Assembly (NCBI GenBank): GCA_012719495.1
Contig: JAAYAG010000060.1
Span: forward strand, 1 to 64,000
DNA from: Bacteroidales bacterium
GTDB lineage: Bacteria; Bacteroidota; Bacteroidia; Bacteroidales; Prolixibacteraceae
DNA: 64,000 nt
Direction: 5' to 3'
Part shown: positions 24,301 to 52,175 of the stretch, piece by piece
Layout: each line of letters opens with the position of its first letter
How positions within the stretch are numbered: position 1 is the stretch's first letter
The notes under the pieces: model-generated
The model's input: only the letters and a program-made list of their open reading frames with translations
What the model was told of the DNA's origin: nothing
The model's database searches: none
Translations under genes and position numbers: made by a program

Positions 24301-26843
24301 CCTTCGTACGACCAGTTAATCTTCATTCCCACATAATCGGGGTATGGCGAGTAGGGTTTCGAGATGCTGTTGATGCTGAAATCGCCGCCCTCTTCAAAAA
24401 CTTTGGTTGTGAAACTTGCATTCAGAAATCCATTTACATTCTTGTTGGTTTTCAAGTCGAAGGTGATATCTGTTTTTCCCTCCTGATTAAGTTTTCCATC
24501 AAAAATAGTTTGGTTGTTGACCGTATTTCCACCGAAAGGCGTAGAGAAATCGTAATCTTTGAAATTGTCGAACTTGGGTGCTATTTGGCTGAATGACACA
24601 TCGACACGGGCAGCAAGGTTTTTGGCCGGCATTCCGTGCAACCATTTTGCCTCCAGTTTTCCTTTCGAACTTCTTTTTGCGGAGAGAATTTTATCGTTGA
24701 AACTTAAATCAATTTTCAGTCGGTTAGGTTTAACGGTTTCAACCTGAATGCTTTTGTTGAACTGGCTTCCACCGGCATTTACAACTAGCCGCCAGTTCCC
24801 GGTTGGGTCGTCAGGATTGGTCTTGAAATAGAACGGATAAATTGATTTTTCGCTCTTGTTCCTGACCATTTTCTGAACAAACTGACCTTTGGGGTTAAAT
24901 ACTTCCATTACAAGCGGATGCCCTTCGGGTAAGCTTTTCAGCTTGTCTTCGAGAATGAACGAAACGTAGACCGAATCGCCCGGGCGCCAAACACTGCGTT
25001 CGCCATAAATGAAGCCTTTCATACCCTTTTGAACGCTTACGCCTGAAACATCAAAGTTACTGAGCGACAGGCTGGTTCCATCGTCAATTTTCAGGTAGCC
25101 AATCTGCTTGTCTTTTTCGGCAATGACTAAAAATGGATCGAACTCAGTTTTCACCGAAACCATTCCTTCTGAGTTGGTTTTTGCTTTTGTAAGAAACTGG
25201 TTCTGAAAATCGTAGAATGAAATTTCTACGCCCGATTCAGGCTCGGCAGTTAGCAGGTTCGAAACGTAAATGTTGGTGTTTTTGTTCTGCCCTGTTTTTG
25301 CAATAATGCCAAAGTTAGAGCCTAATATGTTGCGTTTTAAGAATTTATAAGGCGAATAATATGCGTATTTGCAAGGATCATCGTTTTCATCCCACTCGTT
25401 GTAATAGGTGTAGAACACATCCGAGTACTCCTTATCGGGGTTTTCCTGTTCATCTTCAATTGGTACAAATTTGTTCGATTGTTCATCTTTCGATTCGCAA
25501 GGATAGGTCGAATACTCCTTCCGGAACCCAATTTCGATGTTGTAAATGGCACCGGGTTCCACGGTAATAATTTTTGTCAGGTCGAGGTTGAAAGCGTTCC
25601 AAGTGTTCAGATCTTTGGGTCCTTTGTTGGTCAAGTCGACCTTCATGCGTTTCACCGTGCGCCCAACCTGATGGAGGCTCCAGATATTGTCGAAATTCTG
25701 ATTTTGCAGAAATGAGTGGATGTTGTTCTTGAATATCTTGGTAATACGCACATCGACAGCGTTGAGCGAAGTAGCCTCGAATGGAAAATAGAGCCCGGTA
25801 CTCTGCGGCACAATAACCCCTTTCCCCAACAGCCTTATCTGAGGTTTCGTGCCTCCAAAATTGAGTTGTTCTATGTAGTTCGAACCAAGTATATATCCCA
25901 GTTCGCTTTCGATAGAAGCATTCAGTTTGAGCGTTTTTGTGCCTGTAATTTGTTCCGAAGGATAAATCTTCAACAAGTTCCGTTCAACCGAAACCTGGCT
26001 AATATTTTCGTTGTCGAGTTGGATCAAACCGCGTAAATCGATCTGATTTTGAATAGGATCTGAAAATGATATTTCAATATGCTGATCGGGATTATTGATG
26101 ACCTGAACCGAGGTTACAGCAAAATCTTTTAACGAAGGAACTTCAACTTTTATGGAGCCCTTCCCGTTTTCGAGGTCTATTTTTCCCCCGGCCCATTCAA
26201 CTTCAACCTCCGATTTCTGTTCTTTGCGCTTGATTTCTAAAACCCTAAAAGAGTGTGTGTTCGATTTTGCCTGGTGATTCCACAGAAGTGGCAGTTTGTC
26301 GCCATCTTGTTCGGCAGTAAAAATTTCTTCAATCTCTTTGTCGTCGATCAGGTCGGAAGTAACAATCTCGATGGGGAGTTCATACGTCTTGTCGTTTTTA
26401 TCGGAAATTGAGAGGCCGCGTTCCGAAACCCTTATCTGTTTGGTCGTTGTGTTGAAATTGAACGTCAGCGTTGAAAGCTGTTTCGACACTTTCATCAGTT
26501 TTGAAAGCTTCAGTTTGCCTTGGTACGACGCGTCCCAATCGAGCAAATTAGTTGGTTTGAATTCGATGGCGTCGGTATTTGCCCACACTGCTTTTCCATC
26601 AATTGAAGGGGAGAACGAAAGCACGGAGCTTGAAACTGTTGAACCAATTTCTTCTGATGAAACTAGCTCGGAGGTGAATTTGATCACAATTGCATCGGAG
26701 CGTTTTATTTGTCCCGATGTAACGCCGTACACAAACTCGTGAAACGACTCAATTGACGATGGTGTTCCGGCATCTCTCTTTTTGCATCCAACAAAAGCAA
26801 TCAGCAGGGTAATTGCAACGAATAGGATTGTTTTTAGCTTCAT
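21348..26843 (-). CDS. Bacterial alpha-2-macroglobulin family lipoprotein (YfhM-like), 1831 aa
   Basis: Lipoprotein signal MKLKTILFVAITLLIAFVGCKK. Thioester motif GCVEQ (…RYPHGCVEQTTSSVFPQ…). Very large multi-domain beta-rich protein. Stop TAA overlaps the pbpC ATG (TAATG). Confidence 0.85.
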   Translation of the reverse strand: MKLKTILFVAITLLIAFVGCKKRDAGTPSSIESFHEFVYGVTSGQIKRSDAIVIKFTSELVSSEEIGSTVSSSVLSFSPSIDGKAVWANTDAIEFKPTNLLDWDASYQGKLKLSKLMKVSKQLSTLTFNFNTTTKQIRVSERGLSISDKNDKTYELPIEIVTSDLIDDKEIEEIFTAEQDGDKLPLLWNHQAKSNTHSFRVLEIKRKEQKSEVEVEWAGGKIDLENGKGSIKVEVPSLKDFAVTSVQVINNPDQHIEISFSDPIQNQIDLRGLIQLDNENISQVSVERNLLKIYPSEQITGTKTLKLNASIESELGYILGSNYIEQLNFGGTKPQIRLLGKGVIVPQSTGLYFPFEATSLNAVDVRITKIFKNNIHSFLQNQNFDNIWSLHQVGRTVKRMKVDLTNKGPKDLNTWNAFNLDLTKIITVEPGAIYNIEIGFRKEYSTYPCESKDEQSNKFVPIEDEQENPDKEYSDVFYTYYNEWDENDDPCKYAYYSPYKFLKRNILGSNFGIIAKTGQNKNTNIYVSNLLTAEPESGVEISFYDFQNQFLTKAKTNSEGMVSVKTEFDPFLVIAEKDKQIGYLKIDDGTSLSLSNFDVSGVSVQKGMKGFIYGERSVWRPGDSVYVSFILEDKLKSLPEGHPLVMEVFNPKGQFVQKMVRNKSEKSIYPFYFKTNPDDPTGNWRLVVNAGGSQFNKSIQVETVKPNRLKIDLSFNDKILSAKRSSKGKLEAKWLHGMPAKNLAARVDVSFSQIAPKFDNFKDYDFSTPFGGNTVNNQTIFDGKLNQEGKTDITFDLKTNKNVNGFLNASFTTKVFEEGGDFSINSISKPYSPYPDYVGMKINWSYEGWKKLNIEENHVIKVATVDEDGKPVSLNGIQVKIYELEYSWWYDSNDENLASYAGTTHYTPVISKTISSVNGKAEFTIKPDEDMWGRHLMLVTSPNGHTSGQVIYFGWDWGRDRQNGGAQVLALVAEKTNYKVGEKVTIGFPANKNATALITFENGNGVIGQQWLKNLNSFTEYTFEATPAMSPNVYVSISLIQPHGQTVNDLPIRLYGVIPIMVEDPETRLQPVINMPAEVRPLKEFTINIKEKNRKAMDYTVAIVDEGLLDITNFKTPDPWGSFYAREALGVKSYDMYNYVMGSFGSRIESMFAVGGSNNGVDMSKKKAERFKPVVKVLGPFHLDANKEASHKVALPQYVGSVRTMVIAASEGKYGNAEKAVAVREPLMVLATLPRVLSPDETVDLPVTVFAMNESVKKVQVHISSNPNIQIIGRADTTIAFSSTGEKNISFRIKSASKQGFAKVKVEVQSGTEKSFNEIELDVRLPNLPETTSQFKLLAAGEKWVCEQSAFGIEGTNKLQLEISSLPPLNLGRRLEYLIRYPHGCVEQTTSSVFPQLYLPSLLSLSANDQLRVKNNVTAGIERLQRFQLANGGFTYWPGSSYVEEWASCYVGYFLLEAEKAGYLVPSNMKKKWLEYTSKAASQYSINSQYSYNNYIQAYRLYLLSVAGEPQVSAMNRLRTSSNLNNQTKWLLAGAYALASMKDAAYKLIDFRNMTPDKPDYECYGSELRDKGIILQTLVALKEWDQAAKVALEVSKSISTDDWYSTQSTAYSLVALSSFAVQTGSNDEINFKQTINGETTAIRSKAKFYSIEPQFNKSGNATIVVENSGKGSLFVNVFNTGAKKDVDLTSAEKGMQMEVKYFDSNMNPIDTKSLQQGTDFTAMVMVKNKTAARVKNIALSQLFPSGWEIINTRLAPGAGINKNSPFDYCDFRDDRVYIYFGLDSYESKTFTVNLNAAYCGEFIQSPVICSDMYDNNFMSKTPGRTVKVVKN

Positions 26844-33841: not shown

Positions 33842-34798
33842 TTGAGAAAAGAGAAACCGGAAACCATCAGAAAATCTTGTGGGCTTTTTCACGCAAATTC
33901 ACCGCCAATGAAACTTAACGACTTTTTTGTTCCCGCTTGGAAAAACAGCGACCCTAAAGTACGGCTGAAAGCTATCGAAAAGAATCATTACGATGAAAAT
34001 ATTCTTTCCTGCATTATAAAAAACACTGATGAAGAGATTGATGTCGTTTTTGCGGCTATCGACAAGCTACAAAACACTGAACTTTGCGAAATACTTTTTC
34101 AAAATGTTTATGGAAAAAAAGCTGATGAAAAAAGAAAGAAGATTCTTCAAAAGATTAGTGACGAACAACATATCCTAAAAATTTATTGGAAAATACGCAA
34201 CAGTGGTGGAAAATCTTTTCTGGAGATAGTTCTCGAACAACGGTTGTTTGAACTCTGGGAAACAGCTGTTGAAAAGACCATTGATACTGATGCTCTTATA
34301 GCCATTGCCCAAAAATCGCTAAATCATATACAGGGATCTTATGTAAGTTCAGGTTCTTTCAGCATAGCCCGTATCGCTATCAAAAAAATTTCTGATTTGG
34401 AAAAATTGTCGGCCTGGATACAGAACCAATTTGCCTCAACCAAACAGCTCCATTATTCCATTCTGGATGGGTTATCGGAAAGGCTGAAACAAAAAGATTC
34501 TGAAAAATTCTTTTCATCGATCGACAACACCGAATTGCTACTCCTTCTATACAAAAGCGGAGGGACTGCTCTTGTTGCTGGTGTTGAAAAAAGGCTATCT
34601 CAAATGGGAAAAAAGATCCGGATTGACGAATACGATAAAGAGGGAAAATGTTCATCGTGCGATGGAGCTGGCGGAGGAGATGCCAGGATCCCCTACACCG
34701 ATAATGATTGGAAATGGGAAAGATGTGAATACTGCAACGGAACCGGCCGCGAAATGTTTCACATCAAAGAGTACCTCATCGAAAACCTCGAAGATTAG
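33842..34798 (+). CDS. Hypothetical helical-repeat protein with C-terminal DnaJ-type CxxCxGxG zinc finger
   Basis: C-terminus CSSCDGAGGG … CEYCNGTGRE (two CxxCxGxG motifs). N-terminal helical repeat region. Alternative start MKLNDFF at 33908. Confidence 0.4.
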   Translation: MRKEKPETIRKSCGLFHANSPPMKLNDFFVPAWKNSDPKVRLKAIEKNHYDENILSCIIKNTDEEIDVVFAAIDKLQNTELCEILFQNVYGKKADEKRKKILQKISDEQHILKIYWKIRNSGGKSFLEIVLEQRLFELWETAVEKTIDTDALIAIAQKSLNHIQGSYVSSGSFSIARIAIKKISDLEKLSAWIQNQFASTKQLHYSILDGLSERLKQKDSEKFFSSIDNTELLLLLYKSGGTALVAGVEKRLSQMGKKIRIDEYDKEGKCSSCDGAGGGDARIPYTDNDWKWERCEYCNGTGREMFHIKEYLIENLED

Positions 34799-36901: not shown

Positions 36902-37336
36902 TCAATTAACACTGGTTTGTGGTTCTGTGTTTTGTTTCACTTCGCCCGAAATACGCAATACCACTGAAGGGGTTTCAGCAGCGTTTGACGTAACGGTTAT
37001 CGATTTCGCGAAAGCACCGATTCGATGCGTATCGTACGTTACTTTAATTTCTCCGCTTTGTCCCGGTGCAACAGGATCTTTGGTCCAACTCGGAGTAGTA
37101 CAGCCGCATGAAGCCCTTACATTAGAAAGGATCAGTGGTACAGTACCCTCGTTCTTAAACTTGAAAGTACAGGTTCCATCTGCACCATAAGCAATTTGAC
37201 CATAATTGTGATTCAAGTATTCAAAAACAATTTTAGCTTTTGCCACTGAATCAGCAACTGCTGGTTGTACTGGTTGTTGTGCAAACAATGTAAGGGTACA
37301 ACTAACTATTAACAGTGATAAAAATATTTTCTTCAT
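36902..37336 (-). CDS. DUF1573 domain secreted protein
   Basis: Signal peptide. Ig-like domain with the family's CGC motif (NVRASCGCTTPSW). Confidence 0.65.
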   Translation of the reverse strand: MKKIFLSLLIVSCTLTLFAQQPVQPAVADSVAKAKIVFEYLNHNYGQIAYGADGTCTFKFKNEGTVPLILSNVRASCGCTTPSWTKDPVAPGQSGEIKVTYDTHRIGAFAKSITVTSNAAETPSVVLRISGEVKQNTEPQTSVN

Positions 37337-37448: not shown

Positions 37449-38198
37449 TTATTTTTTTCTTGTCAGGTCTTTTAACCCGTTGATAATGGTTAATGGGTGG
37501 CACGGGTTTCCGGGGATATACAGATCGATAGGATACTTACTCAGAAAACTCCGGTCGATAGCCGGACTATCTCCAAAAATTCCACCACTAATGGCATCTG
37601 TTCCTGCCAGAACTATAATTTTAGGAGCAGGGGTTGCATCATAACAAAGTTGCACCGGTTCGGCCATGTTTTCCGATATGGGGCCTGTAATAAGAATCCC
37701 GTCGGCATGACGCGGCGAAGCAACAAAATCGATCCCAAAACGGCTCATATCGAATTGAACATTGTTGGCGGCATTGAGCTCCCACTCGCAACTGTTATCG
37801 CCTGCTGCTGATATTTGCCTAAGTTTTAACGATTGCCCCAATACTCGATGCACATCTGACCTCACTTTAGTAGGATCAACTTCAATGGTTCTATCTTCGC
37901 CTTCGGTTACAACGAGCCTTTCACGTATGTTGGTAGAAATTTTATAATCTTTGGTGAATTCAATTTTTGTTGGAAAACGCCTGGCACATTCACCACAAAA
38001 TGTGCATTTCCCCAAATCGATACGTACCGGCGATGTTTCAATGGCTCCTACCGGGCAAACCAACTGCAGCTCGTGTTCGTCAACTTTTTCGAGGCTAATA
38101 ACCGGCCGCCCCCTGAAAATTCCCGGAACCTTTGCCGAAGTAACATCGGGAATAAATTGCTTCCCCTGATGGTATACTATTTTTAAATTTTCTAACAT
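37449..38198 (-). CDS. Fusion of a single-cluster 4Fe-4S ferredoxin domain with a NuoB / [NiFe]-hydrogenase small-subunit-like domain (HyfH-HyfI-like); Cys ligands incomplete
   Basis: N-terminus CPVGAIE + CTFCGECARRFP, one cluster's worth of Cys. C-terminal NuoB-like SPRHADGILITGPISENMAEP…IIVLAGTDAISGG…IPGNPCHP. Canonical CCxxE and GxCxxxGG cysteines are replaced. Confidence 0.7.
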   Translation of the reverse strand: MLENLKIVYHQGKQFIPDVTSAKVPGIFRGRPVISLEKVDEHELQLVCPVGAIETSPVRIDLGKCTFCGECARRFPTKIEFTKDYKISTNIRERLVVTEGEDRTIEVDPTKVRSDVHRVLGQSLKLRQISAAGDNSCEWELNAANNVQFDMSRFGIDFVASPRHADGILITGPISENMAEPVQLCYDATPAPKIIVLAGTDAISGGIFGDSPAIDRSFLSKYPIDLYIPGNPCHPLTIINGLKDLTRKK

Positions 38199-38230: not shown

Positions 38231-39730
38231 CTACAAATCGTGACCAGCATACGAAAGGTTAAAACTCTTGTTGCAAATTGGAAAATCAGAAATTTCGTTA
38301 TTCCTTACCGCCAAGGCCAATGCCAGCCAATTATGGAACGAAGGATCTTTTATCTTGTAAATGAGCAACTCTCCTTTTTCATCGGTAATGGCACAATGGC
38401 ATATTTCGCCGCGCCAACCCTCAACCAACGCGATAGAAAATGCATTTGGCGAAGAATTTTCCAGATTATTTACCTCACTGGTAGCATCTGGCACATTGTC
38501 AAGCATTTCCTTAATGTATTTTATCGACTGCCTGATTTCGTTCCTCCGAATCTGGAAGCGGGAATATACATCGCCATGGTGCTTAATAGCTGGTTCATGT
38601 TTCATTTCGCTATACAGATAAAAAGGATGCGTAGAACGAATGTCCCGGGTTAGCCCGCTCATGCGTGCGGCCATTCCAACGGCACCTATCGAAAGTATAT
38701 CGTCATATGAAACAATCCCGGTTCTTTCAAACCTTGATAACGTACTTGGTAACCGGCGGATTTGTTCAACGATCTCTTCAAAGTCAGGTTCATATTCTGT
38801 AAAGATTTGCGCTAACCTTTCGGCAAGAGCCGGGGTAAAGGGGAACTGATTCCGGCCAGGCCTAATGAGCCCTTTCGACAAGCGGTTTCCACCCCATTCC
38901 TGCATAAAGTTTATCATTGGGGTACGCAAACGTCCAAGTACCGAACTCCCAAGCTGATAGGCTACATCGGTACACATGGCGCTCAAGTCGCCGGTATGAA
39001 TAGCAATCCGCTCCATCTCGAGAGCAAGAGTACGGGCAAATTGAATATCTTTTGATGGTTTAAACCCGCACAAACTTTCCCAAACCATCGAAAATGCAGT
39101 GGTATGACCTACAACAGTATCTCCTGTAATATTTTCGGCTAACGTTGTACGCTGCAACAGGCTTTTTTTATCGAGGAAAAGCTGTTCAACCCCACGGTGC
39201 TGAAAACCAAGCTGTATTTCAAGATGAAGAATTTGTTCACCATTACAAATAAACCTGAAGTGACCCGGCTCGATAACACCGGCATGAATTGGACCTACAC
39301 CCACCTCGTGAAGTTCTTCACTATCGATACTGTAAAACGGGTAGTTGGCAATGGTTTTCGATTTGTCGGCACGGTTAAACGGGTAACGTACCGGTTTTAA
39401 CCAAGGATGACCAACAAATCCAATCCCGAAATTTTCGTGAATCTCGCGCTCAAATTTCTCGAAGCATAAAAGCTCTTTTGATAACGAACGCAAGTTATCA
39501 TCATTATTTACCACACACGATAATACATAAATTTGATGGGTCAGATCGTCGGCAAGGCAACATATCAATTTAATTTTTCCATTCAGGCGATATCCAAAAT
39601 AATTGGCGCAATGCCTTTCGGTTTGCCCAGTCATCAATTTCGATATTTCATCGAAAAAAACAGGATAACTTACCTCAGGAATTTCGGCAATGCCAATGGT
39701 GGTATTATTTTCTATCTGTATGTAATTCAT
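38231..39730 (-). CDS. Fused NuoC/NuoD-like (hydrogenase-4 large-subunit HyfG-like) protein lacking [NiFe]-binding CxxC motifs
   Basis: 499 aa. NuoC-like N-terminus. NuoD/HycE-like core (GPIHAGVIEPGHFRF…GFQHRGVEQ). No CxxC pair anywhere in the protein. C-terminus DFPICNKS occupies the place of the DPCxxCxxR Ni/Fe ligand motif. Confidence 0.75.
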   Translation of the reverse strand: MNYIQIENNTTIGIAEIPEVSYPVFFDEISKLMTGQTERHCANYFGYRLNGKIKLICCLADDLTHQIYVLSCVVNNDDNLRSLSKELLCFEKFEREIHENFGIGFVGHPWLKPVRYPFNRADKSKTIANYPFYSIDSEELHEVGVGPIHAGVIEPGHFRFICNGEQILHLEIQLGFQHRGVEQLFLDKKSLLQRTTLAENITGDTVVGHTTAFSMVWESLCGFKPSKDIQFARTLALEMERIAIHTGDLSAMCTDVAYQLGSSVLGRLRTPMINFMQEWGGNRLSKGLIRPGRNQFPFTPALAERLAQIFTEYEPDFEEIVEQIRRLPSTLSRFERTGIVSYDDILSIGAVGMAARMSGLTRDIRSTHPFYLYSEMKHEPAIKHHGDVYSRFQIRRNEIRQSIKYIKEMLDNVPDATSEVNNLENSSPNAFSIALVEGWRGEICHCAITDEKGELLIYKIKDPSFHNWLALALAVRNNEISDFPICNKSFNLSYAGHDL

Positions 39731-39731
39731 G

Positions 39732-41159
39732 TCATTGAGGTAAAAGCATTATACTTTCTTTAATCAGTTCGACCAATTCGGCAGGCGGGTTAAGCCCCAA
39801 ATAAATGGCCAGTGCAAGCAGAACAAACTGCGAAAGAGATTCCCACGGGCTAATTTTCGGCACATTGCTATCGTCGAAATCAACTGGAGGAACAAAAAGG
39901 ATTTTAAGAATATTTTTTCCAAAAGCCCATATAATAATAGTGAGCAACAGAAGCAAAGCGGCAAGAACAATAATTTGCTTAGCCTCGAAAAGCGAGCGGA
40001 ATATCATGAATTCGCTCACAAAAAGACCCGAAGGGGGCATGGCTGTGGCACTAATGAAACCAGTGAGCAACACCATGGCACCGGCAGTATTATATTTGAA
40101 ATAATTTCCAACATTGTAAATACTTTTGTTCTGAAACACCCTATACAGCTGGGTGAACTGCAGAAATAAGCTTGACTTTACAAAAGCATGAAGAATAATG
40201 TGCAAAATGGCAGCATAATAGCCAACACCTCCGGCAGCCACACCCAACATAACCAATCCCATGTGCTCTATACCCGAATAGGCGAGCATACGTTTTATGT
40301 TCTTTACTTTAATCATATACACTGTCGATACAAAAACCGACAAGAAAGCAGCAATACCAATTACCATATTGGCCCAGTGGTGAAGCGGTGTATTGGCAAC
40401 CACAATATAAAACCTGAAGATGCCCACAAAACCAAGGTTCATCAGCACGCTCGAAAGCAAGGCTCCAACGGGTGCCGGGGCTTTGTCTTTAGCATCGATA
40501 CCGGCAGTAAACATTGGCACTAAGCCAAGCTTCGCCGTAAAACCAGTAAAAATAAACAAGAAAGCCAGGCGCAGCCAAAACGGGTTCAGTTTAGCACTAT
40601 TCGTAACAAGATTAGTGTAACTAAGATCCTGAGAACCTGCCTGTTCAAGAGCAAGGCTTAAAAACAGGATACCGATGAATACAAAGGTGATGCTTATAGC
40701 ACAAATAAATACATATTTCCAGGTTCCTTCGAGGGCTAATTTGTTCCGGTGATGGTATATTAAGGCAGAAGCACTCAAGGTGGTAATTTCGGTGAAAATC
40801 CAGGTAACGGCAATGTGATTGGCCAAATATCCAGCACTTATCGCTGTGATTAAAAGCACTATAGATGCATAATATATTGAACGGGTTTCGGGAGGTGCCG
40901 GTTGGTCCTCGAGGTAAATGTGACTATGAAAAATTGCAGCTACCGAAATAATACTCATTGTAACCAAGAGCAAGAATGCAAGCGAATCATAGGTAAAATA
41001 GGTTAAATCGGTACTCCTTAAGTTATTGTATGAATAGAATGTAAGTATCCATTGCAACACCAGAAACAGGCCAAGAAGCCCGAAGGTAAGTTGTTTGTTC
41101 CGGATGAAAAAGAGTCCGATTACTATTGAAAATGCTCCTATCAGATATATTCCAATCAT
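39732..41159 (-). CDS. NuoM/NuoN-like (HyfF/HyfD-like) proton-translocating antiporter-type subunit
   Basis: 475 aa, about 14 TM. Conserved antiporter-like core (…GIEHMGLVMLGVAAGG…). Confidence 0.7.
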   Translation of the reverse strand: MIGIYLIGAFSIVIGLFFIRNKQLTFGLLGLFLVLQWILTFYSYNNLRSTDLTYFTYDSLAFLLLVTMSIISVAAIFHSHIYLEDQPAPPETRSIYYASIVLLITAISAGYLANHIAVTWIFTEITTLSASALIYHHRNKLALEGTWKYVFICAISITFVFIGILFLSLALEQAGSQDLSYTNLVTNSAKLNPFWLRLAFLFIFTGFTAKLGLVPMFTAGIDAKDKAPAPVGALLSSVLMNLGFVGIFRFYIVVANTPLHHWANMVIGIAAFLSVFVSTVYMIKVKNIKRMLAYSGIEHMGLVMLGVAAGGVGYYAAILHIILHAFVKSSLFLQFTQLYRVFQNKSIYNVGNYFKYNTAGAMVLLTGFISATAMPPSGLFVSEFMIFRSLFEAKQIIVLAALLLLLTIIIWAFGKNILKILFVPPVDFDDSNVPKISPWESLSQFVLLALAIYLGLNPPAELVELIKESIMLLPQ

Positions 41160-41176: not shown

Positions 41177-41809
41177 TTAATAATCCTTGAGGTTAGTAAG
41201 TTGCTCTACGTCAACATCTTTAAATACGTCTCCAATTTTATTGAGAAAAATGCCCAGAATGAGTACACTGGCAAAAATATCGAGCATAATGCCCAGGTTC
41301 ACCAAGTGCGGCATTTCGTTCCCCACAGCCAGCGAAAGCACAAAAACCCCGTTTTCAATAATCATATAGCCCATAACATGGGTAATAATTTTCCTTCGGG
41401 AAGCAATTATATACAAACCCGAAAATATGGTCGAAAGGGCTACAACAAAGAACATCTTATCCAGATGAGTATCTTTTATGCTGTTCGAAAGCAATATGGT
41501 TGCAATCACTATGGCTGTTGTTATCAGCAACGAAACAAAGTTGGGAAGATAAGGCTCAGCCTCTCGGGTGATATTGTTCCGCCTTAGCAGATATGCTAAA
41601 AACATAGGTACAGCCACCGCCTTGAAAACAATGGTCTCGAGCATGATCAACACCAAGTTCAACGTGTTAATCTCATTCAACTGAAGAAACACGACAAAGA
41701 AAAGCAACACGCCCTGAACTGCCAGTACTTTAGTGTACGACAACAGTCGGTTGGCTATCGAAAGATAGAATAGCGTGATGATGAAAACTATCAGAAGTAC
41801 GTCTATCAT
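41177..41809 (-). CDS. HyfE-like small membrane subunit of hydrogenase-4-type complexes
   Basis: 210 aa, 6-7 TM. C-terminus VDVEQLTNLKDY resembles the E. coli HyfE C-terminus (…LDVNNLTALKG, recalled from memory). Confidence 0.5.
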   Translation of the reverse strand: MIDVLLIVFIITLFYLSIANRLLSYTKVLAVQGVLLFFVVFLQLNEINTLNLVLIMLETIVFKAVAVPMFLAYLLRRNNITREAEPYLPNFVSLLITTAIVIATILLSNSIKDTHLDKMFFVVALSTIFSGLYIIASRRKIITHVMGYMIIENGVFVLSLAVGNEMPHLVNLGIMLDIFASVLILGIFLNKIGDVFKDVDVEQLTNLKDY

Positions 41810-41828: not shown

Positions 41829-42734
41829 TTAATTGAACTTCCCTAAAATGAGTATGGCTCCGAAGAATATCAAGAGCGAAACCGATGTGAGCGCCACAAT
41901 AAACTGTGCGTTATGGTTCATTCTGAAACGGGCCATAAACGATTCAATCAGCCCCACGACAACAGCCATAAGGAACTGGATAATAAAGAACAAGGGTATC
42001 GCATACTGATAATCTACCATCCCCACAAAAAGGTTTACAATGAGCGCTCCGTAAATGGCAAATTTCAAGTATCCGGCACTTAGCAAAAGTCCCAGATCGA
42101 AGCCACTGTTATCGAGGATCATAACTTCGTGTATCATGGTGAGTTCAAGGTGCGTTTTAGGATCGTCGATAGGCATACGGCTATTTTCAATCATAGCAAT
42201 CATTACCAGAACAAAAGTTGCCAGTGTAGCCAAGGCATAACTCAGGTACGAGCCAATATGCAATGCCGCAAATATTTCCTGAAAAGACGTATACCCTGTA
42301 AGCAAGGCAAATGAGCCCATAAGGATGAATAAAGCCGGTTCGGCAAACATCGAATACAATGCTTCGCGGCTGGCACCCATTCCCTCAAAACTACTTCCGG
42401 TGTCGAGTGCCGATATAATGCTGAAAAACTTGCCTAACGCCAAAACATATGCAAAAAAGATAAAATCGCAATTGAAACTAATCAACCCTTTTGATTGACC
42501 GAAAGGAACAACAAGCATAGCCATCACTACCGATGAAAAGTAGATTGTTGGTGCAATTTGAAAGATGATACTGCTTGTTTTGCTGTATACAGCCCCTTTT
42601 TTGAAAAGACGTATAACATCTTTGATTGGCTGCATAATTCCTGGTCCTTTCCTTCCCGAAGCAAGGCTTTTGGTGCGCACCACAATGCCAGTGAAAAAGA
42701 AGGCAGCTATTACAATTAAAAATAGGCTCAACAT
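41829..42734 (-). CDS. NuoH-like (HyfC/HycD-like) membrane subunit
   Basis: 301 aa polytopic. Position in the cluster and size match HyfC/NuoH. Confidence 0.55.
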   Translation of the reverse strand: MLSLFLIVIAAFFFTGIVVRTKSLASGRKGPGIMQPIKDVIRLFKKGAVYSKTSSIIFQIAPTIYFSSVVMAMLVVPFGQSKGLISFNCDFIFFAYVLALGKFFSIISALDTGSSFEGMGASREALYSMFAEPALFILMGSFALLTGYTSFQEIFAALHIGSYLSYALATLATFVLVMIAMIENSRMPIDDPKTHLELTMIHEVMILDNSGFDLGLLLSAGYLKFAIYGALIVNLFVGMVDYQYAIPLFFIIQFLMAVVVGLIESFMARFRMNHNAQFIVALTSVSLLIFFGAILILGKFN

Positions 42735-42736
42735 AA

Positions 42737-44764
42737 TTATAGTTGTTTTATAAATTCAAAAAAATCCAGAATCAATCCATATACCAACGGGATCATTATC
42801 AGTGAAATGATAAATATTATCCCGTATAATATCGAGAATTGCAATTTCCCGTTATTAAGGAATACAAACTTTCCTAAAAAGCTCTTAATTCCTCTTATTG
42901 GCCTGTCTATCAAGCTCTTTTCCAAACGATCATAAGGATGCGTCTTAAGGGCTGCATGTTCGGGGAAGATTCCCGATACAGGCTTTTCTTTTTGGCCAAT
43001 TAACAGCAAATGACCAAATAGTTTACTATAACTCCTTACATACGATGATGCGGTGTATTGTAACTTTGGTGTGGGTGAAACATATCCGCACCCCCAGGTA
43101 ACCGAAGATGTGGTAACCCTGTTTTTTGTGACCAACTTCCGCAGAAGGAACATCAACACAATAAGCACGATAAAACCTGTTGAAGCAAGTCCGATGTATT
43201 GCAATGTATCAGCAATACTTCCCTGAATTGGAGCAAACTCCCCTACCCTGTTTCCTGTGAGCACAGAAGTTGCATGGCTGACTACTCCAAAAAATCCCTG
43301 AGGAAAAATCCCTATACCAACAATAAGAAGAGCAATAAAATATAAAGGAATACGCTGAATAGCCGGAGCTTCATGTATTCCGTGTACGAATTTTTTCCTT
43401 GGTTCCCCTAAGAAAATTGTCCCAAATGCTTTGGTAAAACAAAAAAGGGCCAACCCTCCAATGAGCACAAGTGCCAGGGTTGAAAAAATAATCACAATAA
43501 GCGGGACGAGCGTAGCATTTTGTACCCATTGATATAAGCTGCTGTAAATCAAAAACTCAGAAACAAAACCATTCAGTGGCGGAATACCGCAAATGGCAAC
43601 AGCTGCTATAAGAAATAATAGGGTTGTGTGGGGCATTTTCTTAATAAGCCCGCCTAGATGCTCAATATTTAACGTATGAGTCGCCTGATAAACAATGCCT
43701 ACAGTATAAAACAGCAAGGATTTAAACAGTGCATGGTTTAAAGTGTGCAACAATGCCCCCGAAAAACCTAACCAGGCAACCAATTGATTACCATTGCCAA
43801 GGCCAATACACCCAATGCCTATCCCCATACCAATAATACCAATATTCTCGATACTATGATAAGCAAGTAACTTTTTAACATTGTGCTGAATAATTGCCAG
43901 CATTACTCCATATAACCCCGAGATGGCCGAAATAATCAGAATGAAATAGCCTATACTGGTATAGTCAGTTTTTATTAATACCAACATCCGCATAATTCCA
44001 TAAATCCCAATCTTAATAAGCACTCCCGACATGATTCCCGAAATATGGGTAGGAGCCGCCGGATGAGCATGGGGCAACCAGGTATGAAACGGGATAAAGC
44101 CCGCTTTGAAAGCAAAACCTATAAAGAAGCAAATGAAAAGGAAAAGACCAACCGAAGTGGGGTTCGACTGTGAATATTCAGTAATAGATGCAAAATCAAA
44201 ACTACCGGTTTTCACAGCAACCCAGATAAAACCCAGCATCAGAAAAAGAATAGAAACATGGGACTGAATCAGGTAATTAATACCCGCTTTCAATGTCGAC
44301 ATCTTATCTCCTTCAAAAATTACTGCAATAAATGCCGAAAGAGCCATCAGTTCCCAAGTAATGAGAAACACAAGGCTGTTCTGTATAACGCAAAGACTTA
44401 CAAGAGACAGGTGAAGCACAATGAATGCAATGCAGTGCAATGAAATCTGCTTTTGTTGCTCCCGGTATGCTTTAAGGTAGAAAATTCCATAAAAGCCCCC
44501 TGTAATAAAAACAATATTGATAATAAGAATAAACCATGCCGAAAGAGCATCAATCTGGAGCCTGATTGGGCCAGTTACCGCACTCCCGCCAAAAACATAT
44601 TCTTCGGCTCCTCCGACAATTGCGCTAATAGCTATCGCAGACGATAACCCGGCAACCAGCAAGAGTTCTAAATATGTAACTATTGCTTTTGCTTTCTCCT
44701 TCATAAAGGGGATGGCAACAACAGCCAACAAAGGCATCAGCAGATAAGCAGATATGTTACTCAT
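42737..44764 (-). CDS. NuoL-like (HyfB / MrpA-like) antiporter subunit, copy 2
   Basis: 675 aa. Conserved …WLPHAHPAAPTHISGIMSG… and …GIIGMGIGIG… antiporter motifs. Confidence 0.75.
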   Translation of the reverse strand: MSNISAYLLMPLLAVVAIPFMKEKAKAIVTYLELLLVAGLSSAIAISAIVGGAEEYVFGGSAVTGPIRLQIDALSAWFILIINIVFITGGFYGIFYLKAYREQQKQISLHCIAFIVLHLSLVSLCVIQNSLVFLITWELMALSAFIAVIFEGDKMSTLKAGINYLIQSHVSILFLMLGFIWVAVKTGSFDFASITEYSQSNPTSVGLFLFICFFIGFAFKAGFIPFHTWLPHAHPAAPTHISGIMSGVLIKIGIYGIMRMLVLIKTDYTSIGYFILIISAISGLYGVMLAIIQHNVKKLLAYHSIENIGIIGMGIGIGCIGLGNGNQLVAWLGFSGALLHTLNHALFKSLLFYTVGIVYQATHTLNIEHLGGLIKKMPHTTLLFLIAAVAICGIPPLNGFVSEFLIYSSLYQWVQNATLVPLIVIIFSTLALVLIGGLALFCFTKAFGTIFLGEPRKKFVHGIHEAPAIQRIPLYFIALLIVGIGIFPQGFFGVVSHATSVLTGNRVGEFAPIQGSIADTLQYIGLASTGFIVLIVLMFLLRKLVTKNRVTTSSVTWGCGYVSPTPKLQYTASSYVRSYSKLFGHLLLIGQKEKPVSGIFPEHAALKTHPYDRLEKSLIDRPIRGIKSFLGKFVFLNNGKLQFSILYGIIFIISLIMIPLVYGLILDFFEFIKQL

Positions 44765-46767
44765 TTTAAAACATTTAATCCAGTGAGGACAACTATAAGT
44801 ACCACAAACAAAATTCCATATAATACATACGATTGCATACGGCCATTTTGTATAAACTTGAAATAATTGGCACTAAACACTATCCGTTGAGTAACAAAGT
44901 TAAAAATATAGTACTCAAAAAAGTCTTTATAGTGCGATACATATTTTCGCTTCTTTGGAAATATTTCACCATCAGAAAGTTCTGCATATTTCTTCTCCTC
45001 TATCAGTAAAAAACTGAATACCTTTCCCAACGGTTTCGAAAACGATTTCCCGGTATACTGCATTTTGCTATTGGGGGCAACATAGGAGCAGCCCCAGGTT
45101 CCTTCGGTTTGCTGTTCCCGGTTTTTCACCATTAGCGAACGAATTCCCCAAATTATTCCTACAACGACCAACAATAAAATAAAATAATAGTTAACAGCAA
45201 CAATATTGTCTGAATAACTGGCAACTGACGAAAAAATGGCAATATTCTTCAAGCCGTCTTGAAGTATACATTGAATACTATTCAGGAAAAAGCGCGGAAA
45301 GAAAGCAACAAGAAGCATTACTGCTACAATAATGTATTGCGGAAACAGCATAATTTTCGACACTTCTTGCGGAACTGTATGCAATTTTTTCCGTGGTGAG
45401 CCAAGAAAAACCACCCCAAATGTTTTCGAAAAGGTAAGGATAGAAAGCCCTCCAATGAGGCTAAGCCCTGCAAATGATAAAATTACAAGACTGGTTTGTG
45501 TAATATCACCCGTTTTCAACGCTTCAATCAGGCCGTTATATAAAATGAATTCCGACACAAATCCGTTGAAGGGTGGCATACCCCCAATGGCAATAGCGCC
45601 AATCAGGAACAATATTGCCGTTTTGGGCATTTGCTTTATCAACCCGCCCAATTTCTCCATATCGCGGGTGTGGGTTTGCTGATACACTGAACCGGCTGAG
45701 TAGAAAAGCAGCGATTTGAATAGCGAATGGTTCAGCACATGCAACAGGGCGCCCGAGAATCCTAAAAAGAACAGTAACGGGGAGTTGTTGCCGATGCCAA
45801 TCAAGCCTAGCCCAATCCCAATGCCAATGATGCCAATATTTTCGATGGTACAATAAGCCAACATCCGTTTAAAATCGCGGTGAACAGCTGCATTTAGTAT
45901 TCCGTATAACCCGGTGAGCACCGATACCGAAAGAATAATTTCGCCGAGCATCAAAAAATCGGATTCAAGAAAAGTAATGACCCTGAATATTCCGTAAATA
46001 CCCAGCTTTACAATTACACCCGACATTACACCCGACACGTGCGACGGAGCCGCCGGATGCGCATGGGGCAACCAGCTATGAACAGGAATAAAGCCGGCTT
46101 TTATTCCAAATCCTACGAAAAAGATCAGAAAAAGCCATATGTTGTTATTATTGGCAAAGAATGTTGAAAAAGCATCGAAACTAAATGAGCCAGTAGTGGC
46201 ATATACCCAGATAAACCCTATTGTGAGAAGAATAACACTGATATGCATCTGAACCAGGTAATTAAGCCCAGCTTTCAGGGTTTTTGGTTTGTGCCCGTCG
46301 AAAATTACAAGAAGCATCGACGACAGCGACATTATTTCCCAAGCTACCAGGAAAGCAAAACTATGCTGCAACATACAAACCCAAACCATTGATAGCTGAA
46401 AAACAACATACAACGACCAATGAAGGGAAAGTTTAGCAGAGTTGTTTTGATAACTTCGAAGATAGCCAATGCCATAAAATGCACCCGTAACTGATGTAAA
46501 GTTGATAATAAGTATGAACCAAGCTGAGAGGCCGTCGATTTTTATCGGGATACTTCCCAAAAAAGAACCGGCAAAAATTGATACAGAACTTGTTGCCCCG
46601 CCTAATGCCTGAAGTGCAGGAATACTTGTTGACAATGCAGTAATAACACTAGCCAGAGCGGCAATATATGCTTTGCTATTTGGTTTGACTAACACGATAA
46701 AAACTATCGCAATCAGAGCAGTTGCCCACGACAGGTTCAATAATAATTCAGTACTTATCATTATCAC
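44761..46767 (-). CDS. NuoL-like (HyfB / MrpA-like) antiporter subunit, copy 1
   Basis: 668 aa. WLPHAHPAAPSHVSGVMSG motif. 4-nt ATGA overlap with copy 2. Confidence 0.75.
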   Translation of the reverse strand: MIMISTELLLNLSWATALIAIVFIVLVKPNSKAYIAALASVITALSTSIPALQALGGATSSVSIFAGSFLGSIPIKIDGLSAWFILIINFTSVTGAFYGIGYLRSYQNNSAKLSLHWSLYVVFQLSMVWVCMLQHSFAFLVAWEIMSLSSMLLVIFDGHKPKTLKAGLNYLVQMHISVILLTIGFIWVYATTGSFSFDAFSTFFANNNNIWLFLIFFVGFGIKAGFIPVHSWLPHAHPAAPSHVSGVMSGVIVKLGIYGIFRVITFLESDFLMLGEIILSVSVLTGLYGILNAAVHRDFKRMLAYCTIENIGIIGIGIGLGLIGIGNNSPLLFFLGFSGALLHVLNHSLFKSLLFYSAGSVYQQTHTRDMEKLGGLIKQMPKTAILFLIGAIAIGGMPPFNGFVSEFILYNGLIEALKTGDITQTSLVILSFAGLSLIGGLSILTFSKTFGVVFLGSPRKKLHTVPQEVSKIMLFPQYIIVAVMLLVAFFPRFFLNSIQCILQDGLKNIAIFSSVASYSDNIVAVNYYFILLLVVVGIIWGIRSLMVKNREQQTEGTWGCSYVAPNSKMQYTGKSFSKPLGKVFSFLLIEEKKYAELSDGEIFPKKRKYVSHYKDFFEYYIFNFVTQRIVFSANYFKFIQNGRMQSYVLYGILFVVLIVVLTGLNVLK

Positions 46768-47025
46768 AGATCAGTAAAAATACTATTTCGGATGCAAGGT
46801 AAGGGATTATTCTGTACTCTCAGAAAGAAGAAAGCTATTTATAACCCCAATAAATTCTCATTTTGGATAAAACTAGAAAATGAGGGGGCGAATTTAGAAA
46901 ATTAAGGATATCGAGCATGCTAATTATGAGATGTTTTTTTTATATAATCTGTGGAGTTAATGTTTGATTAAGCTAAAAATAGGTTCAACCTAAAGAAATT
47001 AAGTTTTATATTTGCGCCTCAATTA

Positions 47026-47098
47026 GCCTTTTTAGCTCAGTTGGTAGAGCAGCTCATTCGTAATGAGCAGGTCGCGGGTTCGAGTCCCGTGAAAGGCT
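47026..47098 (+). tRNA. tRNA-Thr (anticodon CGT)
   Basis: Acceptor GCCTTTT/GAAAGGC, D-arm AGCTCAGTTGGTAGAGC, anticodon stem-loop GCTCA-TTCGTAA-TGAGC, T-loop TTCGAGT. A hairpin plus T-run follows at about 47127-47160. Confidence 0.85.
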
Positions 47099-47393
47099 CT
47101 GAGACAACCATCTAAATTTATTATAAAGCCTGAAATCAATGATTTTCGGGCTTTTTTATGTTTCATTGACAACAACTCAGTAATAGGAACTATTTATTGT
47201 TGTATGGATTGTTGAGTCAATGTGCTGCCATTCAGAACTTAATCCATAAGCTTTATTAATCGGTAAGTTATTCGCATTTTTAACAATTATCGTTAAATTC
47301 ACCTCTTCAAATTAACCAATATAAATCGAACCAATTGAAATTTGAAATACGTGAATTAATCTACTTTAGCTAAAGACTTAATAACTTATACTT

Positions 47394-49067: not shown

Positions 49068-49170
49068 ATTTTATGAGGTACTCCTCAAATAAATTTTTTT
49101 ATGTGAATTTTGTTGTTTCATAAACCAATTGTTGTATATTGCAACAGTTTTAATTTACAACATTGACGTA

Positions 49171-49638
49171 ATGAAAGAAACTGAAATTAATACGATAAAG
49201 AAATTCAGGGAAATACTCCGGAGTTTTGAACGCGAGATATTTGTGCAAACCAACGAGTGTTGTTGTGGTGGAGTTACACTAGCGCAATGTCATGCTCTTT
49301 TGGAAATCGAAAATAAGAAAACAGAATCGGTTACTGAGCTTGCCAAAACACTCGATCTCGATAAAAGCACTGTTAGCCGAACGGTTGATGGACTGGTAAA
49401 CATGGGGTACATTGACCGGACAATCCCGAACGAAAACCGGAGAACATCTGTCTTATCCCTTACCGAATCGGGGCAGAATGTATGCCTTTCGATCAATGCA
49501 AACAACGACAAGTTTATCGGCGATACGTTATCGATCTTAACCGATTCTGAAAAAGAGGAATTGATTGGGTTGTTTGAAAAAATTACAAACCAGATGATTT
49601 CTTTGCGAACAGCTTGTTGCAGTCCATACAAGCGTTAA
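49171..49638 (+). CDS. MarR-family winged-helix regulator with unusual Cys clusters (N-terminal ECCCGG…C-H, C-terminal CCSPY)
   Basis: Start at MKETEINT (ATG 49171). wHTH (…VTELAKTLDLDKSTVSRTVDGLVNMGYIDR…). Eight Cys in total. Confidence 0.65.
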   Translation: MKETEINTIKKFREILRSFEREIFVQTNECCCGGVTLAQCHALLEIENKKTESVTELAKTLDLDKSTVSRTVDGLVNMGYIDRTIPNENRRTSVLSLTESGQNVCLSINANNDKFIGDTLSILTDSEKEELIGLFEKITNQMISLRTACCSPYKR

Positions 49639-49677
49639 AATAAACTGCACACATCAATAGAACAATTAACAATAGCC

Positions 49678-50595
49678 ATGATTTTCGATAATATTTTACA
49701 AACCATTGGAAACACTCCTCTTGTGAGGATCAATCACCTGAACCCAAACCCAAACGTTACCATTGCTGCAAAAATCGAAGGGTTCAACCCATCGGGCAGC
49801 ATCAAAGACCGTATTGCACTGAAAATGATTGAACAGGCCGAAGCCGAAGGTATTTTGGCAAAAGGGAAGACCATTATTGAACCCACATCGGGCAATACCG
49901 GTATCGGGTTGGCCATGATCGGGAAGATTAAAGGGTACGAAGTTGAAATTGTTATCAGCAGGGCGGTTTCAGAAGAACGGATAAAAATGATCAAAGCCTT
50001 TGGGGCAAAGGTTACTTTTACCGATGAGAAGCTGGGAACCGACGGAGCAATTTTAAAAGCAAAAGAACTGGTTAAAGCCAATCCAAACAAATACTTCATG
50101 CCCGACCAGTTTTCTAACAACTACAACAAAATTGCCCACTACAAAACTACCGGCGAAGAGATATGGAAACAAACCAACGGGAAAATAACCCATCTGGTTT
50201 CGGCGCTTGGAACTTCGGGCACCATTATGGGCGTTGGAAAAGCGTTGAAAGAAAACAATCCCGCCATAAAAATTGTTTGTGCACATCCGGTCAAAGGTCA
50301 TTACATTCAGGGACTTAAAAGTATGGCCGAAGCGATTGTCCCGGCCATATACGATCCATCGAAAATTGATGAAACCATCATGATCGAAACCGAAAGTGCG
50401 TTTGAAATGGCTCGTCAGGTTGTGATGAAAGAGGGGATATTTGTTGGCATGAGCAGTGGCGCGGCCATGTATGCTGCCATCGAAACCGCTAAAAAGATCG
50501 ATTCGGGTACCATTGTCGTCATTTTTCCCGATAGTGGCGAGAAATACCTGAGCACCCAGCTTTTTTCAAAGTTGGAGAACAACGTTGAAAATTAA
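49678..50595 (+). CDS. cysK: Cysteine synthase (O-acetylserine sulfhydrylase)
   Basis: 305 aa. PLP-lysine motif NPSGSIKDR, glycine-rich loop TSGNTGIGLA. Confidence 0.9.
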   Translation: MIFDNILQTIGNTPLVRINHLNPNPNVTIAAKIEGFNPSGSIKDRIALKMIEQAEAEGILAKGKTIIEPTSGNTGIGLAMIGKIKGYEVEIVISRAVSEERIKMIKAFGAKVTFTDEKLGTDGAILKAKELVKANPNKYFMPDQFSNNYNKIAHYKTTGEEIWKQTNGKITHLVSALGTSGTIMGVGKALKENNPAIKIVCAHPVKGHYIQGLKSMAEAIVPAIYDPSKIDETIMIETESAFEMARQVVMKEGIFVGMSSGAAMYAAIETAKKIDSGTIVVIFPDSGEKYLSTQLFSKLENNVEN

Positions 50596-50760
50596 AATCA
50601 GAACGCCGTTCCGGAAAGCATATTTTCTTTATAATCATCTTATTAACACCTATAAACCCTGAATAAAACTATTGAGGCAGGTATTGTATTCTCCTGTAAG
50701 AACGTTTTCAAATAGCAGTTAATAATAGAATATGACATTCAGAATAAAAACATACATGCA

Positions 50761-52107: not shown

Positions 52108-52175
52108 ATGCATTTACAATAGAATGAATGTTGTGGCGAGTTCCTTCAGGCAATTTAAAAACAAATTAGTATCAG

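Follow-up and report, generated by a model that had tools for sequence, protein, structure and literature searches.

A predicted single-cluster small subunit with carboxylates at the proximal cluster site in an Ehr complex of Bacteroidota

Introduction

What is left of an electron wire when its set of iron-sulfur (Fe-S) clusters has been trimmed to one? The question is raised by a gene in the stretch of DNA analysed here (the window), which comprises 64,000 nucleotides from a Bacteroidales bacterium of the Prolixibacteraceae (assembly GCA_012719495.1, contig JAAYAG010000060.1, positions 1 to 64,000 of the forward strand). The gene encodes a fusion of a NuoI-like and a NuoB-like domain, and a reading made from the letters alone (the sequence-only reading) had taken its product for a shortened wire that still feeds an active site. 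We find that this open reading frame (ORF) encodes an Ehr (energy-converting / Ech-hydrogenase-related) small subunit. Alignments show that the protein retains ligands for exactly one composite [4Fe-4S] cluster and carries, in place of the N2/proximal cluster, a conserved Asp134 / x / Asp201 / Asn231 set.

We assign the gene to an Ehr complex because the operon agrees with those of Ehr complexes in its order of genes and in having lost the [NiFe] ligands: HyfB-, NuoH-, HyfE- and HyfF-like genes accompany genes for a large and a small subunit, the large subunit lacks the NiFe CxxC motifs, and the small subunit is a NuoI-NuoB fusion. Ehr complexes have been defined, with their function given as unknown, in earlier work (PMC6349859, PMC7304191, PMC10284858). 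The ehrABCDLS genes were named in Methylacidiphilum, where a role in pH homeostasis was suggested (PMC6688271), and EhrA, EhrC, EhrL and EhrS were named among the products of GSU0739-45 in Geobacter sulfurreducens, in which Ehr subunits are more abundant on formate (PMC7894505). Fusions of NuoI with NuoB and of NuoC with NuoD have already been reported for Ehr complexes (PMC6349859, Supplementary Note 4).

A single [4Fe-4S] site in the NuoI-like half

The ORF listing gives one unbroken frame on the minus strand for the small subunit. The whole gene and the features of its N-terminal half are as follows.

37449-38198, minus strand: ehrS-type small subunit, 249 aa, NuoI-like domain fused to NuoB-like domain (ORF, Pfam and PDB matches, AlphaFold2 model)
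37848-38198, minus strand: NuoI/HyfH-derived N-terminal domain, residues 1-117 (alignment to the second ferredoxin motif of NdhI/NuoI and the segment that follows it)
37971-38057, minus strand: single [4Fe-4S] site, C48-P49 ... C65xxC68xxC71 ... F75-P76 (conservation of the cysteines)

The relevant part of the domain reads LVC48P49VGAI...IDLGKC65TFC68GEC71ARRF75P76TKIEFTKDYKIST. Its best alignment in the structural database is with the second ferredoxin motif of NdhI/NuoI, flanks included (query, IDLGKCTFCGECARRFPTKIEFTKDYKIST; NdhI, IDFGICIFCGNCVEYCPTN.LSMTEEYELST; E. coli NuoI, RINFSRCIFCGLCEEACPT.AIQLTPDFEM), and because the match extends into the segment after NuoI motif 2, we consider the domain to be derived from NuoI/HyfH and not to be a generic ferredoxin. 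Ferredoxins with two [4Fe-4S] clusters have two CxxCxxCxxxCP motifs, and the Cys-Pro of motif 1 shares one cluster with three Cys of motif 2. Only these elements, C48-P49 from motif 1 and CxxCxxC from motif 2, are left in the small subunit; F75-P76 occupies the second Cys-Pro position, the CxxCxxC of motif 1 is gone, and the protein has no cysteine, and hence no CxxCxxC, upstream of C48. The four cysteines, C48, C65, C68 and C71, are invariant in 121 of 121 close homologues (at least 76% identity) and in 83 of 83 loci from other genomes and metagenomes (identity down to 50%), which bears out the earlier count of four cysteines and one cluster in this domain.

We take Cys63, Cys98, Cys101 and Cys104 of Thermus thermophilus Nqo9 to be the ligands of N6b, in a chain that runs N5-N6a-N6b-N2. 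If so, the retained cluster would be the medial one, N6b of complex I, and the lost one would be the distal cluster through which electrons enter; with that input cluster missing from the NuoI-like half, the survivor would be an isolated middle cluster.

Carboxylates in place of the proximal cluster

The C-terminal half of the small subunit contains the site at which the proximal (N2) cluster is bound in homologous proteins.

37452-37847, minus strand: NuoB/HycG/MbhJ-like domain, residues 118-249, without the cluster-binding Cys set (gapless MbhJ alignment)
37779-37799, minus strand: D134-N-S-C137-E-W-E in place of CxxCE, proximal/N2 ligands 1 and 2 (MbhJ/HycG alignment)
37581-37604, minus strand: G-T-D201-A-I-S-G-G in place of GxCxxxGG, ligand 3 (MbhJ/HycG alignment)
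37494-37514, minus strand: P-G-N231-P-C233-H-P in place of PGCPP(H/R)P, ligand 4 (MbhJ/HycG alignment)

Ligand positions were fixed by gapless alignment, over approximately 125 residues, to the two best PDB matches of the small subunit, MbhJ (6cfw_J, 5e-24) and HycG (7z0s_G, 3e-19), and the four canonical positions correspond to D134, C137, D201 and N231. Neither the four proximal-cluster Cys of group 4 [NiFe] hydrogenases nor the N2 ligand set of NuoB (CC...C...C) is present. Since the alignment is colinear and free of frameshifts, the absent cysteines are true substitutions, and the refuting case named in the sequence-only reading, cysteines hidden in another frame, does not apply.

Among the 83 loci, position 134 is Asp in 80, position 201 is Asp in 80 (Glu in one and Cys in two), position 231 is Asn in 81 and position 234 is His in all. 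The three Cys in this domain of the query (137, 185 and 233) are more variable: about three quarters of the loci have Cys at position 137 and the rest have A, T, S, V, G or H, and position 185 is C, A or T. The third, C233 of PGNPCHP, sits two residues past the canonical position of ligand 4, is replaced by Ala or Thr in 118 of the 121 close homologues and is Cys in none of the 83 loci; it is fixed only in the species-level cluster of the query. The sequence-only reading had counted two of the four N2 ligands as kept, and this count has to be lowered to C137, the one canonical cysteine, given that C233 is out of register and species-specific. Its suggestion that conservation at the site be checked gave a divided answer: D134, D201 and N231 are nearly invariant, but C137 is dispensable in relatives and C233 is not conserved. 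Several orthologues have no Cys at all at the N2 site, and a Cys-ligated cluster is therefore excluded.

A structural model was predicted with AlphaFold2. The run on the single sequence gave a pLDDT of 30, and the model used here, built with a 65-sequence alignment, has a pLDDT of 93.5 and a pTM of 0.90. Its C-terminal half superposes on MbhJ with a TM score of 0.81 and a root-mean-square deviation of 1.7 Å (Foldseek), confirming the fold of NuoB and of hydrogenase small subunits. Moreover, mean identity across the 83 other loci is 72% for the NuoB-like half versus 57% for the Fe-S half, and because the half without a cluster is the more conserved one, the small subunit is not decaying.

The large subunit and the membrane arm

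The partner of the small subunit is the large subunit, which is encoded by the adjacent gene.

38231-39730, minus strand: ehrL-type large subunit, 499 aa, NuoC-NuoD/HycE-like fusion (Pfam Complex1_49kDa and Complex1_30kDa; alignment to HycE, 7z0s_E)
39116-39127, minus strand: T202-G-D-T205 at the L1 position, in place of C-G-x-C (HycE alignment)
38234-38260, minus strand: C-terminal N-L-S-Y-A-G-H-D-L in place of D-P-C-x-x-C (HycE alignment)

The large subunit aligns to HycE (7z0s_E) at 6e-37, and in this alignment CGIC has become TGDT and DPCYSC has become NLSYAG, so none of the four NiFe cysteines of L1 and L2 is left. The position of the quinone-binding Tyr of complex I, presumably Tyr87 of T. 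thermophilus Nqo4, was located by alignment to the bovine 49-kDa subunit; it falls on the Gly of T-G-D-T, and this Gly is invariant in the other loci, where the consensus is [A/T]GD[T/S] ... NLSY[C/S/A]GH. The match to the NCBIfam NuoD model reaches 150.9 against a cut-off of 360. Because its large subunit lacks both the NiFe cysteines and the quinone Tyr, the complex is not a [NiFe] hydrogenase and not a complex I-type quinone reductase, and it has no recognisable active site to receive electrons. With at most one Cys at the N2 site and the distal cluster lost as well, the idea of a shortened wire that still feeds an active site does not hold.

Two features recur in Ehr large subunits (38231-39730, minus strand, and loci L001-L090). 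An invariant Gly-Asp replaces the G-x of the NiFe CGxC motif, and the proteins share the C-terminus P-x-C-N-K-S-F-N-L-S-Y-[C/S/A]-G-H-D-L, which ends two residues past the His. Both are present even in relatives with all three Fe-S clusters, and together they may mark an unrecognised site.

The antiporter-like membrane arm appears intact: when EhrA2 (675 aa) is aligned with MbhH (6cfw_H, 3e-58), the conserved Glu, Lys and His residues of the stretches WELMALS, FKAGFIPFHTW, NHALFKSLLF and GFVSEF are kept.

The ehr operon

The small and large subunits are encoded by the last two of seven co-directional, tightly packed genes that run from 46767 to 37449 on the minus strand, in the order ehrA1-A2-B-C-D-L-S. 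The remaining five genes encode membrane subunits.

44761-46767, minus strand: ehrA1, the first gene of the operon, HyfB-like antiporter-like subunit, 668 aa (Pfam Proton_antipo_M)
42737-44764, minus strand: ehrA2, HyfB/MbhH-like antiporter-like subunit (Pfam Proton_antipo_M; MbhH alignment)
41829-42734, minus strand: ehrB, NuoH/HyfC-like, 301 aa (Pfam NADHdh)
41177-41809, minus strand: ehrC, HyfE-like membrane subunit, 210 aa (Pfam Oxidored_q2)
39732-41159, minus strand: ehrD, HyfF/NuoN-like antiporter-like subunit, 475 aa (Pfam Proton_antipo_M)

None of the seven proteins reaches an NCBIfam cut-off for the Nuo and Hyf families, indicating that none is an ordinary NuoB, NuoD or hydrogenase 4 subunit. 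EhrA1 scores 509 bits against hydrogenase 4 subunit B (cut-off 667) and EhrC 75 bits against the hydrogenase 4 membrane subunit (cut-off 136), the matches of EhrD to hydrogenase 4 subunit F stay under the cut-off, and the small subunit scores 85.6 bits against the NuoB subfamily model (cut-off 116) and 78.5 against TIGR01957 (cut-off 142.7). At the broader level of Pfam, residues 136-244 of the small subunit match the NuoB family (PF01058, Oxidored_q6) with 71.9 bits, above the gathering cut-off of 27, and residues 59-72 give a weak match to Fer4. Pfam, alignments and gene order thus agree with the description in the sequence-only reading of a NuoI/HyfH-NuoB/HyfI fusion with a reduced Fe-S complement in a Hyf-like operon.

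Upstream of the operon is a gap of 626 bp that holds a tRNA gene on the opposite strand (47026-47098, plus strand; Rfam RF00005, 65 bits) and, after it, a strong terminator-like hairpin with an 11-bp stem and a T-run (47125-47154, plus strand). Their presence limits the promoter region of the operon to approximately 46768-47025. A scan for sigma-70 promoters scored no better than shuffled sequences, the sigma-70 consensus being different from Bacteroidota promoters. Downstream, we considered a DUF1573 gene (36902-37336) as a member of the operon and rejected it because the genes 3' of the operon vary among other genomes.

The number of HyfB-like genes differs among collinear Ehr operons, with three in some loci (L002, L003 and L009), two in the window and one in others (L084, L085 and L087).

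Distribution and conservation

An identical protein is deposited as NLU38497.1 ('NADH:ubiquinone oxidoreductase [Bacteroidales bacterium]'), and identical and near-identical small subunits occur on many independent contigs. The small subunit has approximately 7,860 homologues, and 597 loci were found in the species-representative genome collection. The same operon is present in at least 80 other species, nearly all of them Bacteroidota; the best 80 genome loci come from metagenome-assembled genomes (MAGs) of Bacteroidota together with isolated bins of Melioribacteraceae and Phycisphaerae as well as two Gastranaerophilales. Among the Bacteroidota, the carriers include Bacteroidales, Prolixibacteraceae, Lentimicrobiaceae, Paludibacter, Rikenellaceae, Saprospiraceae, Flavobacteriales and Cyclobacteriaceae, and the names of the cluster members include no cultured organism.

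The operon is self-contained, its flanking genes are unrelated between genomes, and in the contexts inspected no gene for a formate dehydrogenase, NuoEFG or a HyfA-type partner lies beside it. Over 52 complete operons the small subunit is the second most conserved operon protein, with a mean identity of 66%, and purifying selection is strong.

Database names for members of the family are 'Ni,Fe-hydrogenase III small subunit', 'NADH:ubiquinone oxidoreductase', 'NAD-dependent dihydropyrimidine dehydrogenase PreA subunit' and 'hypothetical protein', and no name among them suits the ligand content found here.

Cluster loss and acidic replacement among relatives

To place the single-cluster form among its relatives, representatives of the wider family were sorted into classes by the clusters that they keep, and loci were fetched for examples of each class. 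In 19 representatives the fused NuoI-NuoB protein keeps all three clusters (e.g. P0124, P0125 and P0132), in 13 the distal cluster is lost and N2 is kept (e.g. P0127 from Cloacimonadota and P0128 from Wallbacteria), and in the query clade and others both the distal cluster and N2 are lost. Examples of all three classes have an Ehr-type large subunit in common (AGD[T/S] ... NKSFNLSYCGHDL). The fusion is not peculiar to the query gene; it is a family trait of Ehr and extends to relatives with the full set of clusters. Two orthologues from Gastranaerophilales (Melainabacteria), 55% identical to the query, keep all four N2 Cys, as does the relative from Wallbacteria. Within this one set of Ehr relatives, the wire has thus shrunk from three clusters to two and then to a single one.

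At the four N2 ligand positions, the pattern is D-x-D-[N/H] in the query clade and D-x-D-[S/D] in a second clade (P0153, P0194, P0206, P0221 and P0251), whose large subunit is only 24% identical to that of the query; in L089, the neighbour of this second clade, all four Cys are kept. The pattern is D-A-D-N in a third lineage, which is unfused (L090), and E-C-E-D in P0197. In a neighbour-joining tree, which is indicative only, the acidic-ligand clades stand apart from one another among Cys-containing sequences. It thus seems that acidic residues at ligand positions 1 and 3 arose separately in at least three Ehr lineages, i.e., by convergence. A change from Cys to Asp takes two nucleotide changes, and together with the recurrence this suggests selection for carboxylates over neutral decay.

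In the Ehr literature searched, the 2013 BBA paper (Marreiros et al.) excepted, we found no description of stepwise cluster loss with acidic replacement, and the Ehr papers found by text search contain no discussion of EhrS Fe-S ligands or of Bacteroidota. Likewise, we did not find described an EhrS variant in which an isolated medial cluster is combined with a conserved and apparently convergent carboxylate replacement of N2.

Comparison with characterised complexes

The Ehr complexes of Geobacter, Methylacidiphilum, Margulisbacteria, Melainabacteria and comammox Nitrospira have the same subunit set and order and no NiFe Cys, and the same fusions are reported for several Ehr lineages; the Bacteroidota form differs from them in that its small subunit additionally lacks the distal and the proximal/N2 clusters, leaving one isolated [4Fe-4S] site. 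The operon mirrors the order B-C-E-F-G-H-I of E. coli hydrogenase 4 and the formate hydrogenlyase (FHL; 7z0s), to which it is also linked by the HycG and HycE alignments. In the E. coli systems, however, HyfH and HyfI, or HycF and HycG, are separate proteins with two plus one [4Fe-4S] clusters, whereas here they are fused and have one, and the NiFe-binding large subunit, the formate dehydrogenase and the electron feed through HyfA/HycB have no counterpart here. The membrane-bound hydrogenase (MBH) of Pyrococcus furiosus (6cfw) provides the best match of the NuoB-like half (MbhJ) and of the antiporter-like subunit (MbhH), but MBH has distal, medial and proximal clusters and a NiFe site, and it oxidises ferredoxin to make H2. 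With NuoI and NuoB of complex I (N6a, N6b and N2), the small subunit shares homologous folds, a retained cluster that would correspond to N6b and a conserved NuoB-like core; it differs in having no ligands for N6a or N2, and its partner lacks the quinone Tyr of NuoD. Finally, the membrane arm, with two HyfB/MrpA-D-like subunits, one like HyfF and conserved charged residues, may bear a functional analogy to Mrp antiporters, in that we propose ion translocation independent of redox input. These have neither a peripheral arm like NuoB, NuoD and NuoI nor an Fe-S cluster, and we do not claim Ehr as a member of the Mrp family.

What the complex may do

Our preferred reading of this Ehr small subunit with its one medial cluster, to which we assign a probability of about one half, is that the complex would act as a cation or proton translocator with a structural or redox-sensing cap. 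In both complex I and MBH, the distances from the medial to the proximal cluster and from the proximal cluster to the active site are approximately 10-14 Å each, and the usual limit for tunnelling is approximately 14 Å. By analogy, removal of the proximal cluster would leave a gap of more than approximately 14 Å, and the peripheral arm would then provide no electron wire to the pocket of the large subunit, so that most likely no electrons reach it. Under this reading, cation or proton translocation would be carried out by the antiporter-like membrane arm, the strongly conserved peripheral arm would serve as a structural or gating cap, the orphan [4Fe-4S] cluster would have a structural or redox-sensing role, and the two Asp could stand in for the charge or packing of the lost cubane.

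Several points weigh against this reading. A transport function for Ehr has been inferred only. The cluster Cys do not vary in more than 200 sequences, as would equally be expected of a working redox centre, and the relatives with a complete three-cluster wire suggest that the ancestral Ehr moved electrons. The near-invariant D134, D201 and N231, together with the Gly-Asp of the large subunit, could mark a new site, for a metal or a substrate, by which a redox path is restored. In addition, that the motif-2 Cys and the Cys-Pro of motif 1 bind N6b, which is adjacent to N2, is an assignment that we presume from T. thermophilus structure papers.

The main rival, which we regard as tentative and on balance unlikely, is that the complex is still an energy-converting oxidoreductase, in which the exposed medial cluster takes electrons from ferredoxin or flavodoxin and passes them to an acceptor other than the usual one: a metal other than Fe-S at Asp134/Asp201/Asn231, a site at the Gly-Asp of the large subunit, or a soluble partner encoded elsewhere. 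The invariance of the four cluster Cys speaks for it, as do the near-invariance of D134, D201 and N231 and the recurrence of acidic ligands 1 and 3 across clades at the cost of two changes each. The two-cluster relatives, with a medial cluster and N2, show that a wire without a distal cluster is viable, and the formate-dependent abundance of Geobacter Ehr, a matter of abundance and not of EhrS sequence, suggests that at least one Ehr has a redox link. Four points speak against this rival. No Cys-rich or His-rich site is available, an Asp/Asp/Asn set is typical of hard-cation sites and not of redox metals, the large subunit lacks every known catalytic ligand, and no conserved partner gene lies near the operon.

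A more specific proposal, and a rather doubtful one in our view, is that the Bacteroidota Ehr has given up electron transfer to its 'catalytic' subunit, with a selected pair of carboxylates (Asp134/Asp201, together with Asn231) mimicking the charge of the N2 cluster or binding a cation and the orphan [4Fe-4S] cluster acting as a switch. Protonation, cation binding or the redox state of the cluster, and not substrate turnover, would in that case drive or gate the membrane arm. The acidic replacement, if it did arise separately in at least three lineages, would be a convergent solution.

We consider it very unlikely that an N2-like cluster is still held, through Asp134, Asp201, Cys137 and perhaps Cys185 or Cys233. 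The NuoB-like domain of the query does have its three Cys, and there are other proteins in which Asp is known to ligate [4Fe-4S] clusters; but position 137 is not Cys in about a quarter of species, position 185 varies among C, A and T, position 233 is Cys in the query species only, and several orthologues manage without any Cys at the site. We know of no precedent for a cubane with two Asp and one Asn as its ligands.

Even less probable is a genuine group 4 [NiFe] hydrogenase or complex I variant in which the wire is merely shortened. The hyf-like gene order and the best PDB matches, MbhJ and HycG, are what such an enzyme would show, but the NiFe Cys are missing, Gly occupies the position of the quinone Tyr, there is no N2 ligand set, and seven NCBIfam scores fall below their cut-offs. 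That the gene is an assembly or sequencing artefact joining two genes, or a decaying pseudogene, can be dismissed, given the independent contigs, the widespread full-length fusions (thousands of proteins and the 597 loci, which also settles the earlier concern about a two-gene artefact), the gapless MbhJ alignment, the high conservation and the confident AlphaFold2 model.

Other features of the window

Three other regions of the window were noted. At 49129-54494 (plus strand), four co-directional genes encode a MarR-family regulator with paired Cys (CCC close to the N-terminus and CC close to the C-terminus), a cysteine-synthase-like, PLP-dependent enzyme, a membrane protein of 448 aa and a bifunctional glutamate-cysteine ligase/ATP-grasp protein (GshF-like); the group looks like a cluster for thiol or glutathione synthesis, which is unexpected in an anaerobic Bacteroidales lineage. 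An ORF of 318 aa at 33842-34798 (plus strand) has no Pfam match and ends in CxxCxGxG ... CxxCxGxG, a zinc-finger-like arrangement that resembles the cysteine-rich domain of DnaJ. At 18985-26843 (minus strand), a bacterial alpha-2-macroglobulin (1831 aa) adjoins a PBP1C-type transglycosylase/transpeptidase (851 aa), the usual pairing; as their ORFs overlap by approximately 190 bases, the upstream ORF probably starts at some point after the listed TTG.

Significance

For a long time, Ehr complexes have been invoked as linking membrane-bound hydrogenases to complex I. Ehr relatives offer a natural series with three, two and one cluster, in whose last step N2, on which energy coupling in complex I centres, is replaced by conserved carboxylates while the rest of the complex remains strongly constrained. 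Should the Bacteroidota complex be active, delivery of electrons to the large subunit cannot be what Ehr function rests on, which would narrow the range of possible functions, and the series would provide a handle on how the junction of NuoB, NuoD and NuoH drives the membrane arm. For Bacteroidota MAGs, the labels hydrogenase III and NADH:ubiquinone oxidoreductase over-call H2 metabolism or complex I.

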